DNA from: a virus
Length of the DNA stretch: 9,966 bases
UHGV virus genome: UHGV-2186022
Strand: one strand, 5' to 3'
Made by a program: the position numbers and the translations under genes
In this document: piece by piece, positions 562 to 9,966 of the stretch
Layout of the letters: every line of letters starts with the position of its first letter
Position numbering within the stretch: position 1 is the stretch's first letter
The notes under the pieces: model-generated
The model's database searches: none
The model's input: only the letters and a program-made list of their open reading frames with translations
What the model was told of the DNA's origin: nothing

Positions 562-996
562 TTACTGTTCTGTATCGGCTGATTGCTCCATGCTGGCACG
601 GCGAACGCTTACGGCATGACGCCACCCAGCCAGAAAGCCAGCCATTTTATTTCGTGCCTTGCTCACATCTTCCGGTGAATAGCCGTAAATCTGCAAACCT
701 TCATCAAATCGATGTTCTGTTTCTTCACTGGAGTACTCGTCACGCTCAGATGAAAGCAGCCTGGCAAACATAATTTTTTCCAGCGCACTGGTTTCTACGT
801 GATATCTGATGGCCTCAAGACGGCTTTTACCTGAAGACCAAAGCAATGTATGCCCGATGTGATAACCGCCAGACTTTCCGCGATCCGCATTAAGATACGG
901 CATCCCCTGTTTGGTCCATGCGCGAATAGTGGTTCTGTTAACCTTGAAATGTTCAGCTATTTCCTGCTGACTTACAAAACAAGCTTTATCAATCAT
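562..996 (-). CDS. Nu1-like small terminase subunit-like DNA-binding protein (144 aa)
   Basis: ATG at 996-994 with AAGG 8 nt upstream; TAA at 564-562. N-terminus VSQQEIAEHFKVNRTTIRAWTKQGMPY aligns by eye with lambda Nu1 KKQLADIFGASIRTIQNWQEQGMPV (winged HTH, GMP motif) followed by a GGKG-like G-rich loop. Shorter than Nu1 (181 aa). Sits between two cos copies. Confidence 0.55.
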   Translation of the reverse strand: MIDKACFVSQQEIAEHFKVNRTTIRAWTKQGMPYLNADRGKSGGYHIGHTLLWSSGKSRLEAIRYHVETSALEKIMFARLLSSERDEYSSEETEHRFDEGLQIYGYSPEDVSKARNKMAGFLAGWRHAVSVRRASMEQSADTEQ

Positions 997-1063
997 AATG
1001 TTACCTTAACTGCATGGTTAAATATTAATCAAGTGGTGGTGGTGTCACCTTCACGGAAAAACG

Positions 1064-1128
1064 TCATAAATAGCGAAAACCCACGAGGTCGCCGCCCCGT
1101 AACGGGTCCATATGCCGGAAAGGACCCG
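1064..1128 (-). other. lambda-type cos site, copy B (cosQ-like, cosN identical to lambda, truncated cosB)
   Basis: Minus strand reads ACGGGTCCTTTCCGGCATATGGACCCGTTACG GGGCGGCGACCT CGTGGGTTTTCGCTATTTATGA. The 12-mer at 1097-1086 is identical to the lambda cohesive end; first 15 nt match the lambda right end. About 85 percent identical to copy A over roughly 65 bp, in inverted orientation. Confidence 0.7.
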
Positions 1129-1129
1129 T

Positions 1130-1152
1130 AAAAAAAGCCGGATTTCTCCGGC
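1130..1152 (-). terminator. rho-independent terminator of the head operon
   Basis: On the minus strand, hairpin GCCGGAGAAATCCGGC (1152-1137) followed by TTTTTTT (1136-1130), 7 nt after the TGA of the 137-aa gene. Confidence 0.7.
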
Positions 1153-1158
1153 CTTATG

Positions 1159-1572
1159 TCAGATGGTTTTCAGTATGCGATCGACGTCGCCTTCATCGCC
1201 CTGGTTTCTGCCGTCGTATGCCATGCCGGGTGATACGGCTTTCGGGCTGTGCATGTCCATAAAGTTTTCAAAGGCTGCGGTAAGCTCCGGCGCAACCTTT
1301 GGGCGCTCCTGCTCTATGGTCATGTTCAGGATTTCACGAGCATTATCGACGCTAATACATGGCACGTTTGCCATTGCACGTAACAGCGGCTGATAGTCGT
1401 TATGTTCATGAAGCGCCATAATCGCATCAGCGCGCGGCTTGTCCTGCTCTTCCAGTTTGTTGAGTTGATATACGGCCTCGTAGGTTGATAAACCTCTGTC
1501 AGCCATTGCCCGCGCTTCTGCTTTAAATTTACTCGCCAGCGGTAGCGCCATGATGCTTTCATTCGTTGCCAT
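1159..1572 (-). CDS. hypothetical protein (137 aa), last gene of the head operon
   Basis: ATG at 1572-1570 with AGCAGGGGAAACG upstream (SD GGGG); TGA at 1161-1159; 12-bp gap after the D-like gene. No family recognised; position after the capsid genes suggests a head-assembly or packaging accessory role (inference only). Confidence 0.6.
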   Translation of the reverse strand: MATNESIMALPLASKFKAEARAMADRGLSTYEAVYQLNKLEEQDKPRADAIMALHEHNDYQPLLRAMANVPCISVDNAREILNMTIEQERPKVAPELTAAFENFMDMHSPKAVSPGMAYDGRNQGDEGDVDRILKTI

Positions 1573-1584
1573 CGTTTCCCCTGC

Positions 1585-1920
1585 TTATCGCGCCAGCGGC
1601 TGAACGGATACGCCAGAACCCGCAAAGGCGGCGCATTTTTTCGCGTCAGTGTCGGCGCTCTCAGGCCAGTTTACGGCGGCGATATTAAATATCCCCGTCT
1701 TGTAACACTGTGCTGATTTCTGCTTTGACGTGTCCACGGGGTACGAGGTCAGATAAACAGCCTTCCCAGATTCCTGACCATCCCACGGCTTAAACTCGCC
1801 ATTGTCCGCCAGCATCAGCGGGGTAAATTCCTGAATAACGCCAGCATCAGCGGCAAAATGTACCAGCGTCGTGGATACCTGCTGACTGCCTGCAAATAAC
1901 TCAATGTATGGAGTGTCCAT
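1585..1920 (-). CDS. head decoration protein, lambda gpD-like (111 aa)
   Basis: ATG at 1920-1918 with GGGGGA SD; TAA at 1587-1585. By-eye alignment to lambda gpD: TPLML, WDG, YK(T/S)G(I/T)F, WPE(S/A)A and C-terminal KK..AFAG(S/T)..S(V/I) shared. Confidence 0.8.
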   Translation of the reverse strand: MDTPYIELFAGSQQVSTTLVHFAADAGVIQEFTPLMLADNGEFKPWDGQESGKAVYLTSYPVDTSKQKSAQCYKTGIFNIAAVNWPESADTDAKKCAAFAGSGVSVQPLAR

Positions 1921-1931
1921 AGAATCCCCCG

Positions 1932-2987
1932 TTAAGCAATTTTGACGGTAACAAATTTGCGAATATCTGCCGGAACCGGCTGCGGTGCGCTGTGCGTCTG
2001 CACGTACTCAATCGCCGGATCGCCGTCCTCAATCCAGTTTTTCGGGTAGTACATGTTTTGCGTTGCGCCTGTTCTTACCGCTTCCTGATCCATAATCGCA
2101 CCATAGGCCACCAGCCCTTTGTTGTTGGTGTTGCCCAGGACCAGCAAATCAGGATCAAGGAAATATTTTTCTGTGCCGTCGCTGTCAGTGTATTTGCCGG
2201 AATAGACGATAAGGGCCAGATCACCAAGATAGCCTTTAAAGCTCACCACTTCGCCCAGGTTTTTACATGCCAGCTCTGCGGCGGATTCTGAACCACGGGA
2301 GAGATCGTACAGTTCACGGAATTTTTTAAAGCTGCGTAACATGCGCCATACATCAACGCCCATAATCATGACGTTTGCGGGGCAACCTGCCTGATCTGCG
2401 TATAGCTCAATGTCATAGATTGGGTCGTGTATGTCTTTGTCCTGCTCTGACCATTTTTTACCGTCGGCCTGCTCTATGATGTTTTTTTCCGGTATCTTCC
2501 AGTCGATTTCATAGCGCTCTATGCCTTCGCCCTCAATGATGTTTTTTCCGGTCGTTATCGCATTCACCGCCAGCCATTCCACGCGCGCTTTAATGGCGTT
2601 TATCTGGCGGCGCATGTTGCCAGTAATCAGGCGCATACGGCGGTAGGTAGGGTCGTTAAGCTGTGCCGGATCTTCTCCAGCCATGCGCATTATTGTTTTT
2701 AATGGATCGATTTCGTGTTTTGGCTTCATGTAGCCAGGGCGAATAATGCTGGTTTCGTACCCTTTATCGCGCTGAACCTGGCTACCAACCATAGGCGAAC
2801 AAAACGCCGACATAGTGACTTCTTCAATATCCAGGTTATCTAACATGATGTCCTGTGTGTTGAATGTCGCCACGTTCGGGAAAAACAGCGTGGTAAACAG
2901 AGGGCTGAATTTAAAATCCGCAATATCCCCGCGATTCAGGTACATGAAAAGCTGGTTAGTGTTAAGTGCCGTTGCTTTGCCTGCCAT
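1932..2987 (-). CDS. major capsid protein, lambda gpE-like (351 aa)
   Basis: ATG at 2987-2985 with GGGGG SD; TAA at 1934-1932. By-eye alignment to lambda gpE across the length: FKFSPLF vs FKFDPLF, PGYMKPKHEIDP vs PGYVKPKHEVNP, EDPAQLNDPTYRRMRLI vs EDPQNLADPAYRRRRII, WSEQDK vs WSKRDK, VSFKGYLGDLALIVYSG vs VSYKGMYGDVAIVVYSG, LVLGNT, YPKNW..GDPA. Confidence 0.9.
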   Translation of the reverse strand: MAGKATALNTNQLFMYLNRGDIADFKFSPLFTTLFFPNVATFNTQDIMLDNLDIEEVTMSAFCSPMVGSQVQRDKGYETSIIRPGYMKPKHEIDPLKTIMRMAGEDPAQLNDPTYRRMRLITGNMRRQINAIKARVEWLAVNAITTGKNIIEGEGIERYEIDWKIPEKNIIEQADGKKWSEQDKDIHDPIYDIELYADQAGCPANVMIMGVDVWRMLRSFKKFRELYDLSRGSESAAELACKNLGEVVSFKGYLGDLALIVYSGKYTDSDGTEKYFLDPDLLVLGNTNNKGLVAYGAIMDQEAVRTGATQNMYYPKNWIEDGDPAIEYVQTHSAPQPVPADIRKFVTVKIA

Positions 2988-3193
2988 TATTCACCCCCAT
3001 AATTTTTATGCATCCCAAGCGCCGCAAGTAAATAAGAGCGTACAAGTGAACCTATCGACGGCTCCGGCGTCATCAGCGGATCCAGTCCAGCCGCCACGCC
3101 AGCCTCATAGTTTTTTTTGTGGCGCTGCTTGAGCACCTCCACGATTTCGGGGCTTATGTACACCGAAACACCGCCTTTTTTCTCTTCAGCCAT
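2987..3193 (-). CDS. hypothetical small protein (68 aa), first gene of the head operon
   Basis: ATG at 3193-3191 with AAGAGGA 10 nt upstream; TAA overlaps the capsid ATG by one base (TAATG), implying translational coupling. N-terminus GGVSVYISPEIVEVLKQ is weakly reminiscent of an RHH beta-strand plus helix; not a firm call. Confidence 0.6.
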   Translation of the reverse strand: MAEEKKGGVSVYISPEIVEVLKQRHKKNYEAGVAAGLDPLMTPEPSIGSLVRSYLLAALGMHKNYGGE

Positions 3194-3608: not shown

Positions 3609-3977
3609 TTAAAACGGTATGTTATCCCCGTACGGATCATCATTCCCCGCCTGTTGTTTTGCCCTGTTCAGCGCGTCAGTAGCCTGGCCCTGTTGACCTT
3701 TTTTGCCGCCCAGTCGCGCCGTTCGCGCACTGATTACACTGTCTGCGATAACCTGCCAGCCCTGCCGCGTTTCTCCGTTCTGCCCAGTCCACTGGCTGAT
3801 CTGCATGTTACCCGCCACGCTCAGGAGTTCACCCTTGCGGTGCCTTTCCAGTGCTTCGGCCTGGCTGCACGGAAGGGGGGCCGCCATACGCGCCAGCGTC
3901 ATCGGTGTGCCCTTGCTGGTCTGTTTTACCTGCGGGTCGTCCACCAGCCGCCCGTAAGCTGCTATCTGTGCTGTCAT
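3609..3977 (-). CDS. short SSB-like protein (122 aa) with C-terminal ..DNIPF tail
   Basis: ATG at 3977-3975 with GGAGAGG SD; TAA at 3611-3609. N-terminus [25 protein letters not shown] resembles E. coli SSB [41 protein letters not shown] resembles TRKWTDQSGQDRYTTEV; C-terminus [11 protein letters not shown] resembles the SSB acidic tip DFDDDIPF. The middle of the OB fold appears shortened. Confidence 0.6.
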   Translation of the reverse strand: [122 protein letters not shown]

Positions 3978-4219: not shown

Positions 4220-4270
4220 AGGCTTTACCTCACAGCAATAAAATAAAATTTTTGCATTTTAACCCTTCAC

Positions 4271-4494
4271 CTGTTCACCTTTTGAGATTTTCCCTTTTTA
4301 TTCATAATGTTAAGGGGTGAACAGTTTCACAAAAACTATTCACCAACTGTTCACCACTGTTCACCCTTAAAGCTCAATAAATAATCAAAAAGGTGAACAG
4401 TGAATAGTTTGGTGAACAGTTCACAAATAACTGTTCACCCTATAATGTACTGATATAAAAGATATTTATAACAGGGTGAACAGTGGTGAACAGT
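4271..4494. repeat. iteron array, putative origin of replication
   Basis: Nine copies of the 9-10-bp motif GGTGAACAGT in both orientations. Forward at 4316-4325, 4392-4401, 4411-4420, 4475-4484, 4485-4494; reverse (ACTGTTCACC) at 4271-4279, 4346-4355, 4356-4365, 4431-4439. AT-rich spacers at 4281-4310 and 4441-4470. Immediately downstream of the primase stop. Confidence 0.8.
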
Positions 4495-4506
4495 TATTCC
4501 ATAAGT

Positions 4507-6321
4507 TTAATTTTTGCTGTCGTCATTTGTGACCGATGCACATGATGGCATCCAGTCTTCTGAATCCTCTGTCAGTGTCACATTTGAACGCAAACCGTGC
4601 TTCGTTTTCCGTTTTATATACTCCCTGCCATATTCCGCCATTGCCCCCGGCATATCTTTACCGAAGCGCGTCAGTGTTACAGGTTTACCGAATCCGTGTG
4701 CCCTCATATATGCCAGATAGGCGTGATAAAGATACCTGCGCGGACTGAACGGAATAATTTCGGCATTACCCACTAACAGACCATCACACATTACCGACGA
4801 CATGAGATAGCCACAGAAGTCCACCAGCGAATCGCCCTCGCGTTTTATCACCAGAGCTTCTTCTGATTTCTGCTGCTCATACAGCAGGCGTTTAGCTTCG
4901 TCCTGGTCAGAAAAACGAGTAAGCAGATGGCGAATCACAACCGCCAGCTCTCCTTCTATTTTTTCTGCCAGCATGGGGTCGCGCTCGTTCTCCGGTACAA
5001 CCTCCGAAAAATTGAATATCACCCGACGACGTGAGATCCCCCCGCTGCGGTCACTGAATGACATGGCGTTATTGTTCACCGCCAGCACGACCGCCTGAAT
5101 GCGTGTTGAGTAGGGGGCTTTATGCTTCGGGTCGATTGCCACCTTGTCACCGCCTGTAATGGCCTTAATTCCTGCGCCATCACCAGCGTAGCGGGTCATA
5201 TCCGGCATGATAATCAGCGAAAAGCCAACCACTAACGCGCGTTCCCTTGCATCTTCCAGCGCCTTCATGCTTGCCGATACTGTGTTGGCCTTACCCGCCA
5301 GCATGGTGCAAATCTCCGCCATCACGCTTTTACCACTTCCCCCTGGACCTGTTACCTCAATGAATAACTGCCAGTCGTACCGGTTCGCCAGCACCATGAA
5401 TAATGCAGCCAGCACGCGATCCGTCTTGCGGTCATTCTCTGCCACCGAGCAGCGTAACCACTTCCAGAAATTCGGCGCATGTGTTGCCAGCGTTTCCCCC
5501 TCTGCTGGTGGGCTGAAAGGTAATTCACTGGCAATTAACAACCAGTCGTTTTTGTTATGCTCCCGAAAATTACCTGTTCTGGTATCAAATACCCCGTTAC
5601 TGAATCCAATCAGGTTACGGGCTGTATTCCCCATTACAGGCAAACTTAACTTCATGGTATCGACCGCCGATTTAATGGCGTTCTGCGAATAGCTGATCTC
5701 CGCATCAATGAAAATCTGCGCCATAGCACGCTGTAACTCTTTATCCTGAATCGGCTCCCATACAACGCCGTTGTAATGGTGAACAGTGTCAGAGTCGGCA
5801 TGAATCGCCAGTTCACCGCCATAATGTGCCAGGAGAACTTCGCCGCGCTGGCTTGCTCCCATCTGGTTAAGCGCCAGTGGTGCGGCGCTGTCTTCTGTTT
5901 TTTTCTTAACAGGAAGCTGAATCACCAGACCATCAGAAAGATTCTGGCGCTCACGGGCCAGATATTCGCGCCAGTTCTGCACCTCCTGGCCGTGCATACC
6001 CTCAGGATAAAAATTTGCATCCTGTACGCCTGCCGCCGCCAGCTTCTGACCAATCGCCTTTATCATTACTGGCGCAAGATATCCGGCCCTGAATATGCGC
6101 ACGGATTTTCTGCCTTCCGGCACAATTTGCAGCTTATCCAGTTCGGATAACTGCTGCTCCCCAAGCCACACAGGAGGCTCATTATCTCCGGCCATACGCG
6201 CGTCATGTTCCTGCCATTGTTTTGCGTGTGACCAGGCATCACTACCCGCAAAAATAATGACTTCTGTTTCTTTGTGTTTTATGCCGCGTGACTGCTGTTT
6301 TACGTTCGGTGCCAGTTTCAT
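4507..6321 (-). CDS. primase-helicase, P4-alpha/D5 family C-terminal domain type (604 aa)
   Basis: ATG at 6321-6319 with AGGGGG SD; TAA at 4509-4507. Walker A GPGGSGKS within EVTGPGGSGKSVMAEICTMLAGK, and the overall layout is typical of satellite and plasmid primase-helicase proteins. Confidence 0.85.
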   Translation of the reverse strand: MKLAPNVKQQSRGIKHKETEVIIFAGSDAWSHAKQWQEHDARMAGDNEPPVWLGEQQLSELDKLQIVPEGRKSVRIFRAGYLAPVMIKAIGQKLAAAGVQDANFYPEGMHGQEVQNWREYLARERQNLSDGLVIQLPVKKKTEDSAAPLALNQMGASQRGEVLLAHYGGELAIHADSDTVHHYNGVVWEPIQDKELQRAMAQIFIDAEISYSQNAIKSAVDTMKLSLPVMGNTARNLIGFSNGVFDTRTGNFREHNKNDWLLIASELPFSPPAEGETLATHAPNFWKWLRCSVAENDRKTDRVLAALFMVLANRYDWQLFIEVTGPGGSGKSVMAEICTMLAGKANTVSASMKALEDARERALVVGFSLIIMPDMTRYAGDGAGIKAITGGDKVAIDPKHKAPYSTRIQAVVLAVNNNAMSFSDRSGGISRRRVIFNFSEVVPENERDPMLAEKIEGELAVVIRHLLTRFSDQDEAKRLLYEQQKSEEALVIKREGDSLVDFCGYLMSSVMCDGLLVGNAEIIPFSPRRYLYHAYLAYMRAHGFGKPVTLTRFGKDMPGAMAEYGREYIKRKTKHGLRSNVTLTEDSEDWMPSCASVTNDDSKN

Positions 6322-6605
6322 TTTTTACCCCCTGCGACCAGCATTTCACGAATTTTGCGGATATGACTTGCTGCACGTTTCTGATTTACGGCTTTACGAT
6401 GGCCCACCAGCGTGAAATCACGCCGGAACTGATAAACAGGCATCACGCAGTCATATTCGTAGCCATCACGGCGGTAAGTGATGCGCCGTTCTGCCACGCC
6501 TTTTATCGTTACCGTGCCGCCATAGTTATCCCGGAAAATATCGCCGGGGCGGATTTCAGGCCGAGCGGGGCCGCTGGCAGTAAAGCCAGAATTTTTATTT
6601 TTCAT
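6318..6605 (-). CDS. hypothetical protein (95 aa)
   Basis: ATG at 6605-6603; stop overlaps the primase start (ATGA). Weak SD. No family recognised. Confidence 0.55.
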   Translation of the reverse strand: MKNKNSGFTASGPARPEIRPGDIFRDNYGGTVTIKGVAERRITYRRDGYEYDCVMPVYQFRRDFTLVGHRKAVNQKRAASHIRKIREMLVAGGKK

Positions 6606-6838: not shown

Positions 6839-7067
6839 GGTGCGCCCCTTGAATATCTGCGGTAAGAATTTTGCCTGCCTCATTCAGCGCCATATCAGCA
6901 CTAAGTTGCATAACAGCCAGTGAGTGAGGAACGAAAGCCCCGGCATATTCTGTTTCGCTGGTGGCGTGCTTATGCGCCTTGTCTGCGATAACAGAAATAT
7001 CAATCAGCGCGTGCATCAGCGTTTTGATGGCTTCGGCGGCTGCGTCCGGACGGGTGTTATTGCACAT
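6831..7067 (-). CDS. hypothetical protein (78 aa)
   Basis: ATG at 7067-7065 with AGGGGG SD; TGA at 6833-6831. No family recognised. Confidence 0.55.
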   Translation of the reverse strand: MCNNTRPDAAAEAIKTLMHALIDISVIADKAHKHATSETEYAGAFVPHSLAVMQLSADMALNEAGKILTADIQGAHHA

Positions 7068-7263
7068 GGCGTACCCCCTGACGAATACGGGCAGCGAATA
7101 CCATCACGCAGCCATCAGGAGATTGCTGACGCGCTTCCTGTTCGCTGGTGGCCTCAATGGTAATCACGCGCGGTTGTGCCGTGCTCAGGGCGATAAAACG
7201 CCAGATGTATTTATTCAGGTTGTACGAGTCCCGCCCTTGCGGGTGTGTGGTATGATTTCTCAT
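7057..7263 (-). CDS. hypothetical protein (68 aa), first gene of the operon ending in the primase
   Basis: ATG at 7263-7261 with GAGG 6 nt upstream; TAA at 7059-7057. It is the 3-prime part of the 316-aa track ORF; only this part has a credible start. Confidence 0.5.
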   Translation of the reverse strand: MRNHTTHPQGRDSYNLNKYIWRFIALSTAQPRVITIEATSEQEARQQSPDGCVMVFAARIRQGVRHVQ

Positions 7264-7360
7264 AGCTGCCTCGATACTTTCGCTATCGTTGGTGGTTAGA
7301 AGCCCGTTGGTGTTGGTAGCACCTGCGGGCTTTGTCTTTTCATCGATTACCTCAACAAAG

Positions 7361-7441
7361 GTGTCAGCCACTATACTAGTAACAGGTGTCAGCCACGTCA
7401 ATAGTGTTTTTCCATTTTCTTGTGTGTATACTGTCAGCCAC
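7361..7441. promoter_or_regulatory. triple direct-repeat operator in the divergent promoter region
   Basis: GTGTCAGCCAC at 7361-7371 and 7386-7396, TGTCAGCCAC at 7432-7441. TATACT hexamers abut copy 1 (7373-7378) and copy 3 (7426-7431). Lies between divergent starts at 7263 (minus) and 7463 (plus). Confidence 0.5.
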
Positions 7442-7462
7442 CTAATAACAAGGAAATCAGAT

Positions 7463-7642
7463 ATGGCAACGAAAGCAGTTAATGGAAAATCCAAAAAACT
7501 TGAGGCACGAGTCCCCCATGCAATAGCTGACGCTGTAGAAAATTTAAAGGAAGAAGGCGAAAGCACTGGGCAATTTATCGTTTCGGCACTTGAAGGCGAG
7601 ATCAAACGCCGCCAGCGCCGCAAGGCCAAAGAGCAGGAGTAA
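7463..7642 (+). CDS. small ribbon-helix-helix-like DNA-binding protein (59 aa), candidate regulator
   Basis: ATG at 7463 with AAGGAAA SD; TAA at 7640-7642. KLEARVPHAIADAVENLKEEGESTGQFIVSALEGEIKRR fits an RHH pattern (beta-strand LEARVP, helix A, G-x-S/T loop, helix B) with a basic tail. Fold assignment is by eye. Confidence 0.55.
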   Translation: MATKAVNGKSKKLEARVPHAIADAVENLKEEGESTGQFIVSALEGEIKRRQRRKAKEQE

Positions 7643-7684
7643 CCATCACCAGCGCCGTGGTGTAAGGTATTACGGCGCATTGCT

Positions 7685-7873
7685 ATGCAGGACAACACAA
7701 TGACCGATAAAGAATTGACCAAAACATTATCACCGGCACGGAAAAGACGGCGCAGAAAGATAGAGCATGAATCAGAAAGATTCGCGCCATGTGCTTTTGC
7801 CCTTGAGCAATTCCTTAAAGAGTACAGGGAAAAGCGCTCATTGCAGGTATGGCAACGAACTGAACCAGACTGA
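7685..7873 (+). CDS. hypothetical basic protein (62 aa; alternative ATG at 7700)
   Basis: ORF with RKRRRRK basic stretch; weak SD for either start; TGA at 7871-7873; followed by a terminator. Confidence 0.35.
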   Translation: MQDNTMTDKELTKTLSPARKRRRRKIEHESERFAPCAFALEQFLKEYREKRSLQVWQRTEPD

Positions 7874-7968
7874 TTGCATTGCCCACCAGCCTGATAGCGG
7901 CTATCATCCCCGTGCTTATGTTTGGGATCATATACACATAAGGCGCAGCGGGTTAATTGTTCAGAAAG

Positions 7969-7995
7969 GCGGCTCCATATCGGGGCCGCTTTTTT
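7969..7995 (+). terminator. rho-independent terminator between convergent genes
   Basis: Stem GCGGCTCC (7969-7976) and GGGGCCGC (7982-7989), 5-nt loop, TTTTTT (7990-7995). The alpA stop is at 8022 on the other strand. Confidence 0.6.
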
Positions 7996-8021
7996 CGTGT
8001 TTGTCATATCTGTGATACCCG

Positions 8022-8228
8022 TTAAGCAGCCGTTCCGCGTGCTTCCTGTTCGCGTTCTTTCTGCCAGGCCAACACATCATCCTCATACCATCCGCGACGG
8101 CGTAAACCAACGCGAAAACCCTGCGGAAATTCTCCGGCGTTGATCATGCTTTGCAGCGTGCTGTCTGCCTTGATGTGGATAATTTTTTTTACTTCCTGGC
8201 GAAAGATAATTTTTCTGATTGCTTCCAT
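8022..8228 (-). CDS. alpA: AlpA-family phage transcriptional regulator (68 aa)
   Basis: ATG at 8228-8226 with AAGG 9 nt upstream; TAA at 8024-8022. IIFRQEVKKIIHIKADSTLQSMINAGEFPQGFRVGLRRRGWYEDDVLAWQKER fits the AlpA/Vis HTH pattern (EV..STL...I..G.FP....G.R..GW.E..V..W). Position next to a P4-type integrase is typical. Confidence 0.8.
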   Translation of the reverse strand: MEAIRKIIFRQEVKKIIHIKADSTLQSMINAGEFPQGFRVGLRRRGWYEDDVLAWQKEREQEARGTAA

Positions 8229-8724: not shown

Positions 8725-9966
8725 CTACACGGCTCGGATACCCCTTTTACCACTGGCGAGGGTTACGCCCGTCGCCGCAGCCTCGACAAATTCGCCCCAC
8801 CAGCGCATCAGCACGATGCGTTTTTCTATGTAGTTGCTCCGGTTGTATGCCCGTCTAACTTCGTTGGTGTCGACGTGGGCAAGTGCCGCCTCTATTACGT
8901 CCGGCTCGAATCCTTCCTCGTTCGCTGCTGTGCTGAATATGGCGCGTAATCCATGAGACACCAGCACGCCAGCGAATCCCATACGCCGCAATGCTGCGTT
9001 AGCTGTCTGGCTGTTCATCGGCTGCTGTGGGTCTTTCAGACTTGGGAAAACGTAATTGCGGTGGTGGCTGATTGGTTTCATGGCCTCCAGCACCGCCATA
9101 GCCTGACCGGAAAGCGGGATAACGTGATCCCTGCGCATCTTCATGCGTCCGGCAGGTATCGTCCATTGCTTCGCGTCCAGGTTGATTTCATCCCACCGCG
9201 TTGATGACGCTTCGGCGGGACGGGTTACGGTCAGTAACTGCCATTCAATCAGTAATCTGGTCTGCCGTTCTGTTGCCGATACTGATAAAGCCTGCATAAG
9301 CTCGGGCAGCTGTTCGGGGCGGATTGTTGGCATATGTTTTTTTACAGGTGAGGGAAACGCCTTACGCACATTCATAGCCGGATTGGCATCAATCAGCCCA
9401 CTGTTGGCGGCGTAATCCATTACCTCATTAACGCGCTGTAAAACCCGTTTGAGTGTTTCCAGGTTGCCGCGCTCCTTGATGGGGGTAAGCACCTCAACGA
9501 ACCTGCGAGCGGTCAGGGTGTCTATTGGGGTGTTGCCGATGAACGGGAATACATATTTATCCAGCGATCGCCAGATGTCTTTAATCGTGTTGGGGGCCAG
9601 ATTCTGGCTGATTTTCACCTGGTACCATGCCGCCGCCACATTTTCGAACGTGTTCCCTTGTCTTCGGGCCTCTGCCTCTCGTTTTTTCTTCTCATGGCCC
9701 TGCGGGTCAGTTCCGGCACTGATTAACGCTCTGTACTCGCTACGGCGTTTTCTGGCATCAGCCAGGGAAACATCATCAAGCGATCCAAAACTCAGCAATA
9801 TTCTTTTTTTGTCCGATGGCCGGTAGTAGGAAAATCGCCAGAGTTTTGATCCGGACGGTTTGACCAGGAGAAAAAGCCCTCCGCCGTCCTGTAGGGTGTA
9901 TTCCTTTTCCGCTGGTCTGGCTGCTTTGATCTGCACCGTGGTTAATGGGGGTGTTTTTCTCGCCAT
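8725..9966 (-). CDS. int: tyrosine site-specific integrase, P4 type (413 aa)
   Basis: ATG at 9966-9964 (window edge); TAG at 8727-8725. N-terminus LTTVQIKAARPAEKEYTLQDGGGLFLLVKPSGSKLWRFSYY is the characteristic P4-integrase arm-binding region. C-terminal catalytic elements present: TVTRPAEA (Arg), HGLRAIFSTAA (H-x-x-R), HVDTNEVRRAYNRSNY (Tyr region). Confidence 0.95.
   Translation of the reverse strand: MARKTPPLTTVQIKAARPAEKEYTLQDGGGLFLLVKPSGSKLWRFSYYRPSDKKRILLSFGSLDDVSLADARKRRSEYRALISAGTDPQGHEKKKREAEARRQGNTFENVAAAWYQVKISQNLAPNTIKDIWRSLDKYVFPFIGNTPIDTLTARRFVEVLTPIKERGNLETLKRVLQRVNEVMDYAANSGLIDANPAMNVRKAFPSPVKKHMPTIRPEQLPELMQALSVSATERQTRLLIEWQLLTVTRPAEASSTRWDEINLDAKQWTIPAGRMKMRRDHVIPLSGQAMAVLEAMKPISHHRNYVFPSLKDPQQPMNSQTANAALRRMGFAGVLVSHGLRAIFSTAANEEGFEPDVIEAALAHVDTNEVRRAYNRSNYIEKRIVLMRWWGEFVEAAATGVTLASGKRGIRAV

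Follow-up and report, generated by a model that had tools for sequence, protein, structure and literature searches.

A predicted ribbon-helix-helix (RHH) protein of 59 residues, its three putative operators and a previously unnoticed candidate antisense RNA form a conserved module in front of the replication genes of a phage satellite, a kind of element for which no repressor has been described in the papers searched. The module was identified in a window of 9,966 bp, the whole stretch of UHGV virus genome UHGV-2186022 that was analysed, and its features are listed in Table 1. On comparative evidence, it is best read as an autoregulated repressor of the replication operon supplemented by a cis-antisense RNA, with binding and regulation inferred from sequence.

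ORF listing and family searches showed the window to be a satellite of the EcCICFT073 type. Read from right to left on the minus strand, it comprises an integrase, a small ORF and an AlpA-like helix-turn-helix gene, followed further left by an Icd-like gene, three small ORFs including a DUF4222 protein, and a primase, and finally by an SSB-like gene, a major capsid protein, a head decoration protein and a Nu1-like small terminase. Escherichia coli Nissle 1917 has a 98% identical relative at tRNA-Pro, next to yejM. EcCICFT073 is described as encoding a capsid protein (c1499) and a decoration protein (c1500), and published deletions of the capsid and decoration genes had no phenotype (PMC6092414). 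Its RefSeq annotation shows the same gene order.

Table 1. Coordinates of the features discussed in the text (window numbering; minus-strand elements are given 5' to 3' where two dots separate the positions).
Feature	Position	Strand	Description
Capsid, decoration and terminase genes	562-3193	-	Lambda E-like capsid protein, D-like decoration protein, Nu1-like small terminase
Iterons	4270-4495	both	At least ten copies of GGTGAACAG / CTGTTCACC, just downstream of the primase gene; very probably the origin
Primase gene	4507-6321	-	
Icd-like gene	7057-7263	-	68 aa; first gene of the leftward operon and target of the candidate antisense RNA
Long ORF	7057-8007	-	316 codons; open across ylcI and orf57, ending in the Icd-like gene
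Regulatory module	7248-7642		
Candidate promoter of the antisense RNA	7248-7256	+	Extended -10, TGgTATGAT, inside codons 3-5 of the Icd-like gene
Icd-like start codon	7263..7261	-	
Icd-like Shine-Dalgarno sequence	7272..7269	-	GAGG
Candidate antisense RNA	7262-7347	+	About 85 nt; ends inferred
Hairpin A	7263-7298	+	
Hairpin B	7299-7333	+	
U-rich tail	7334-7347	+	UGUCUUUUC follows hairpin B; terminator-like
Operator O1 (putative)	7361-7371		GTGTCAGCCAC; immediately downstream of the leftward -10, over the expected start of the leftward transcript
Repeat copy 1	7362-7371	+	TGTCAGCCAC
First TATACT	7372-7377	+	Directly after copy 1
Leftward promoter P_L	7373-7401	-	-35 TTGACG (7401..7396), 17-bp spacer, -10 TAGTAT (7378..7373); Icd-like to primase operon
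Operator O2 (putative)	7386-7396		GTGTCAGCCAC; inside the P_L spacer, last base shared with the -35
Repeat copy 2	7387-7396	+	TGTCAGCCAC
Rightward promoter P_R	7404-7432	+	-35 GTGTTT (7404-7409; weak, inferred from spacing), -10 TATACT (7427-7432); ylcI
Operator O3 (putative)	7431-7441		CTGTCAGCCAC; overlaps the last two bases of the P_R -10 and the expected start of the ylcI transcript
Repeat copy 3	7432-7441	+	TGTCAGCCAC; first base overlaps the second TATACT
ylcI-like gene	7463-7642	+	59 codons, stop at 7640-7642, AAGGA 8 nt upstream of the ATG
orf57	7700-7873	+	Small basic ORF (MTDKELTKTLSPARKRRRRK...)
Hairpin terminator	7963-7995	+	Strong; 14-bp stem followed by TTTTTT; closes the ylcI-orf57 unit and separates it from the convergent AlpA-like gene
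AlpA-like gene	8022-8228	-	Convergent with the ylcI-orf57 unit
Integrase gene	8725-9966	-	

The predicted RHH protein and its putative operators

The first-pass annotation had reported three direct repeats, two of them abutting TATACT hexamers, in the region upstream of a small plus-strand gene divergent from the operon leading to the primase, and this observation was confirmed. The 10-bp sequence TGTCAGCCAC was found exactly three times in the window, each time on the plus strand, against a mean of 0.02 matches in dinucleotide-preserving shuffles, none of which (0 of 200) reached three. Copies 1 and 2 extend to AGGTGTCAGCCAC, whereas copy 3 reads ACTGTCAGCCAC. Two refinements followed. Each "direct repeat" is an 11-bp imperfect palindrome, GTG-TCAGC-CAC, and the first TATACT is better read as the complement of the -10 of the leftward promoter detected by a promoter scan.

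The 59-aa protein was placed in the YlcI/YnfO family by NCBIfam (NF041551; 61.9 bits against a curated cut-off of 30, residues 9-50), and RefSeq annotates relatives in the same way. PHROGs lists it only as a family of unknown function, Pfam returned no family at E <= 0.1, including DUF3950, the domain of K-12 YlcI, and neither sequence nor profile searches of the PDB gave a hit. A tblastn search of 50,697 phage records found no match. Seventy clusters of homologues were retrieved from Escherichia, Salmonella, Proteus, Xenorhabdus, Pectobacterium, Serratia, Yersinia, Enterobacter and others. In an alignment of 28 homologues, N7, S10, R16, F38 and the tail E46-IKRRQR-52 were invariant, K9 and the G32-E33-S34-T35 turn between the helices were nearly invariant, and residues 11-15 and 17 varied. 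The AlphaFold model (pLDDT 88), computed as a monomer, comprises an extended segment with a predicted beta strand at about residues 11-17 (KKLEARV), a helix at 19-28, a turn and a second helix at 35-58, and it matched only RHH repressors among solved structures, with AmrZ as the second-best match. The RHH fold suggested by the first-pass annotation is thus the right call.

A scan of one genome per species returned 66 related loci from about 30 enterobacterial genera. In most of these, three copies of one short sequence lie at about -102 (or -112 or -99), -77 and -32 from the ATG, with the general form [G/C]TG-N5-CAC, an 11-bp element with palindromic arms. A strict version, xTG-N5-CAx, was present at both -77 (+/-2) and -32 in 54 of 67 loci. 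The spacing between O2 and O3 was 45 +/-1 bp in 54 of 54 loci, whereas the site equivalent to O1 was found at 22-26 or 35-36 bp from O2 and in either orientation, and this variable spacing makes cooperative binding between sites uncertain. In several types, O1 is the reverse complement of O2 and O3, as expected for a symmetric dimer, so that direct repetition is not the essential property. A fourth operator-like sequence (ATGTCAGCCAT and variants) was found at about -204 in TCAGC-type loci of Xenorhabdus and Pectobacterium (L006, L007, L008 and L010-L014; L numbers denote the related loci), where it overlaps the start codon of the first leftward gene, but the window has no such site.

The central five bases of the sites change in step with the sequence of the predicted beta strand (residues 11-17), of which 23 types were found. 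Examples are KKLEARV with TCAGC, KRFDVRV with TCGGA/TCCGA, QQLNARF with AATCG, LQVSVRL with AACAC, QMTTVRI with AAATA, QKMSARV with GCACC and QSLKSRV with TGGCC. By inspection of the strand and core types, without statistical testing, those with K or R at residue 12 have cores starting with T or G, and those with Q, M or L there have cores starting with A. Within a locus, the O2 and O3 cores agree at 4.41 of 5 positions, against 1.53 of 5 between loci with different strands (permutation p <= 1e-4). To separate this coupling from mere linkage, pairs of loci with equally diverged non-operator intergenic DNA (identity 0.5-0.6) were compared, and same-strand pairs shared 97% of core bases whereas different-strand pairs shared 31%. 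The window and eight Xenorhabdus-group loci share 90-100% of core bases, although the other intergenic bases are 53-64% identical and the rest of the protein 61-66%. The three copies therefore change in concert and follow the strand rather than general relatedness.

The sites do not track other genes of the island either. Nissle 1917 has an identical AlpA, a 98% identical integrase and a 95% identical Icd-like protein, but a different YlcI (50% identity) and different cores (TAAGT / TAAGC / TAAGA). This argues against an alternative in which the repeats are bound by AlpA, integrase, the Icd-like protein or the primase, for example as excision or origin sites, and the small ORF is incidental or a shadow of the long minus-strand ORF. 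In favour of that view, the 316-codon ORF runs on the opposite strand across the region, and PGAP places Icd-like and BRO-N pseudogene fragments, or an over-extended 134-aa Icd-like CDS, on this strand in relatives (L001 9580-10059; L071 3988-4392 and 4566-4821). The long ORF may be a remnant of a Bro-Icd gene and could be the "ORF3" used in published reporter fusions. However, its third codon positions coincide with those of both ylcI and orf57, as expected for a shadow ORF, the true iterons lie elsewhere, and the 59-aa protein is conserved across many genera with invariant motifs and a confidently predicted fold. We consider this alternative very unlikely.

The model island EcCICFT073 (L069, ylcI at 30474-30653) carries the whole module, with strand QALKARV and sites GTGTGGCCCAC (twice) and CTGTCCCCCAC (once). 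Its gene differs from that of the window in the N-terminal, presumed DNA-reading half and in the operators, but the two are identical from codon 46 (EIKRRQRRKAKEQE) into the downstream DNA (compared with 7463-7700 of the window). A recombination breakpoint therefore lies inside the gene, and this half of the gene and its sites move as one cassette. Genomes with two to four modules (Xenorhabdus innexi, with L013, L023, L029 and L059, and eight others) always carried different strand/operator types. This is suggestive of heteroimmunity but not significant in an underpowered sample, as 0 of 16 pairs shared a type and 25% of label shuffles gave the same result.

With respect to the promoters, the hexamer abutting O2 is TTGAnn in 52 of 54 loci, and most loci carry TAnnnT 17-18 bp further on, as judged by reading the O2-O1 spacers rather than by a systematic count. 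O2 thus fills the spacer of P_L, and O1 covers the start point or the first transcribed bases. On the other side, TATACT is present in 42 of 54 loci, and its last bases form the left arm of O3. These are the positions of a repressor of the leftward operon that also limits its own synthesis, an inference from position alone.

A toxin-antitoxin pair, with the RHH protein as an autoregulating type II antitoxin and orf57 as its toxin, was rejected as very unlikely. orf57, which is probably co-transcribed with ylcI, matched only phrog_21027 (from residue 6 of the 62-aa ORF), gave no match to any family of known function in Pfam, NCBIfam or PHROGs, and is annotated as a 57-aa hypothetical protein in CFT073. 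Its homologues are confined to E. coli and Shigella, and it is absent downstream of ylcI in the 66 loci of other genera. Moreover, two of the three sites would control the divergent operon rather than the pair's own promoter. As orf57 lies opposite BRO-N-like pseudogene fragments, it is uncertain whether it is a real gene.

A conserved candidate antisense RNA opposite the Icd-like start

The stretch between the Icd-like start codon and O1, which the first-pass annotation had missed, encodes a conserved plus-strand RNA structure. An nhmmer search found it at the same place in 63 of the 68 sequences searched (the window plus 67 loci). RNAalifold gave -33 kcal/mol on the plus strand against -3.9 on the minus strand, and the single-sequence fold of the window had z = -3.5. 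On an alignment of 61 sequences, 96.1% of cells were paired and 18 of 25 pairs showed changes on both sides, whereas no shuffle of 500 reached any observed measure and shifted registers gave at most 47% pairing. The RNA would be fully complementary to the Shine-Dalgarno sequence and start codon of the Icd-like gene (NCBIfam NF033153, E = 1e-19; phrog_6196; annotated likewise in Nissle and CFT073), and in the majority type the anti-Shine-Dalgarno CUCC sits in the loop of hairpin A. A TAnnnT hexamer lies 5-8 nt upstream of the structure in 60 of 61 sequences, with its T, A and final T invariant or nearly so, and reads TGgTATAAT in Nissle. The promoter, the expression and the ends of the RNA are inferred. 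The promoter is only a -10-like hexamer in coding sequence, and the U-tract is imperfect.

We first suspected that these hairpins act in the sense leader of the Icd-like mRNA, like the C4/CI immunity RNAs of P1 and P4. P1 has the order c4-icd-ant, and complementary strands of a strong hairpin both fold (z = -3.0). This reading was rejected, and is regarded as unlikely, because 233 G-U cells on the plus strand become A-C mismatches on the minus strand, which has only 7 G-U cells, and because pairing falls from 96.1% to 81.3%. An apparent pairing between the O1 transcript and the Icd-like start was set aside once the strand was settled. No C4 or isrK match was found in Rfam at E <= 1 on the window, at E <= 10 on positions 7200-7420, or at gathering score on 17 related loci. 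The scan of the whole window returned only spurious plant-miRNA-type hits on the iterons. The permissive scan of 7200-7420 gave only SymR below threshold (7264-7336, plus strand; 23.4 bits against a gathering score of 61, E = 0.016), a resemblance in design only. The 17 loci gave tRNAs, int-alpA RNA and an L25 ribosomal-protein leader, but nothing on the new RNA. The int-alpA RNA motif (RF02996) lies just inside the integrase gene end in five related loci (L026, L040, L045, L049 and L062) and was not found in the window at E <= 1.

The antisense-RNA region matched 1256 of 5426 complete E. coli genomes. One Superficieibacter locus (L034) has two copies of the element 2.5 kb apart (3805-3881 and 6360-6436), suggesting tandem or nested satellites. 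In some E. coli (for example, NZ_CP157243.1 3008563-3008618), the 5' half of the region precedes an "ash family protein" instead of the Icd-like gene, so that the RNA may be combined with different first genes.

Interpretation of the module

The suggestion of the first-pass annotation, that the small protein is a minimal repressor or autoregulator at the position of a satellite master repressor, is supported by the comparative evidence, and we hold the following explanation with fairly high confidence. The protein would be made from its own promoter and, as a dimer, would insert its two-stranded beta ribbon into the major groove of the 11-bp site, with the invariant residues N7, K9, S10 and R16 reading the constant GTG/CAC arms and the variable residues, mainly 11, 12 and 14, reading the central five bases. 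Occupancy of O1 and O2 should keep the operon of Icd-like, several small genes and primase shut, and occupancy of O3 would give negative autoregulation. The antisense RNA should block translation of any transcript that escapes or reads through. The fold prediction, the conservation and positions of sites and promoters, the coupled variation of sites and strand, and the RNA structure and its strand were established by computation, whereas dimerization, DNA binding, the sign of regulation, the RNA's ends and the link to helper-phage induction are inferences. Indirect support for a DNA-binding homodimer comes from the sites, which are pseudo-palindromic, occur in either orientation and covary with strand residues. 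The conserved position of the module relative to the integrase, Icd-like and primase genes across genera is in line with this explanation.

A less likely alternative is that the protein binds the three sites but acts mainly as an activator or dual regulator, as Mnt does for its own promoter in P22 or as AmrZ does, or as a copy-number governor after induction, rather than as the repressor that keeps the island silent. RHH proteins can activate, and O2 lies only 8-13 bp from the presumed -35 of P_R. Furthermore, overexpression of AlpA alone induces excision and replication of EcCICFT073 (PMC6092414), so that the putative repressor is not the only control and perhaps not the top one. Against this alternative, the sites occupy positions that normally exclude RNA polymerase, and the O2-O3 layout is fixed. 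As to how AlpA might override or bypass the repressor, the hairpin between the convergent units was listed as terminator-like only on the plus strand, so that alpA transcripts may run through it, cross ylcI in antisense and enter the operon.

More tentatively, and possible rather than probable, Gram-negative PICIs including EcCICFT073 would possess an unrecognized immunity-type switch, consisting of a minimal RHH repressor with more than 20 exchangeable DNA specificities plus a cis-antisense RNA, which, and not AlpA alone, would keep the island silent. The specificities would define satellite "immunity groups" that allow several islands to coexist in one genome, and helper induction would work by defeating the switch, for example through such AlpA-driven antisense transcription or through a helper protein that binds the invariant EIKRRQR tail.

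The published model for Gram-negative islands states that a global repressor is "unclear", that AlpA is an activator and that the difference from Gram-positive islands "is a mystery" (PMC6092414), and AlpA is the only regulator named in the literature searched (see also bioRxiv 2022.09.08.507074). YlcI/YnfO appears only as an accessory-gene label in one comparative study (PMC13612085), and searches for YlcI/YnfO, for RHH proteins with PICIs and for Icd-like genes with antisense RNA found no functional study, although an existing description cannot be excluded because most subscription journals were outside their reach. If it works as proposed, the module supplies the missing silencing layer, yields a natural set of matched protein/DNA specificities that could serve as a small recognition code for RHH proteins, and adds a new antisense RNA family to annotate, all of which is directly testable in an existing genetic system.

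Comparison with known systems

The YlcI/YnfO (DUF3950) proteins of the lambdoid prophages DLP12 and Qin share the NCBIfam N-terminal domain model and the strand-helix-helix pattern in sequence. However, K-12 YlcI is only 22% identical, its gene is divergent from the terminase gene nohD and has no [G/C]TG-N5-CAC triplet of sites, and the satellite subfamily has its own invariant EIKRRQR tail, so that the family name says nothing about the function proposed here.

The module sits exactly where Gram-positive islands keep their master repressor, as its gene is divergent from the operon holding the replication genes, and it shares with the Stl/Rpr repressors of SaPIs and Gram-positive PICIs the presumed job of keeping the island silent (PMC6092414). 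Stl proteins are much larger helix-turn-helix proteins relieved by helper-phage proteins, whereas the fold predicted here is RHH and the present data show no helper interaction.

As in P1/P7 immI (c4 RNA-icd-ant) and the P4 CI RNA, the first gene of the controlled operon is of Icd type and its translation start is the target of a small RNA, here a candidate, and some relatives carry Ant/Bro genes in the same zone. C4 and CI are processed from the sense transcript and act on complementary sites (PMC10111431), whereas the RNA proposed here is cis-antisense.

The pMV158 CopG repressor and antisense RNAII, which exert dual control of repB, follow a similar logic, although CopG is co-transcribed with repB and binds one pseudo-symmetric element, whereas here the gene is divergent, has three sites and belongs to an integrated satellite. 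Finally, a tiny RHH repressor gene divergent from its target operon, combined with an antisense RNA over a translation start, is the logic of the immunity I region of phage P22 (mnt, arc, sar, ant; PMC2629481). There is no sequence relationship to the proteins or RNAs of P22, pMV158 or P1, and for P22 this rests on the absence of any PDB hit by sequence or by profile. In contrast to P22, there is one RHH protein rather than two, there are three separate 11-bp sites rather than one larger operator per repressor, and the operon presumed to be regulated runs from Icd-like to the primase of a satellite rather than encoding an antirepressor in a phage late region.
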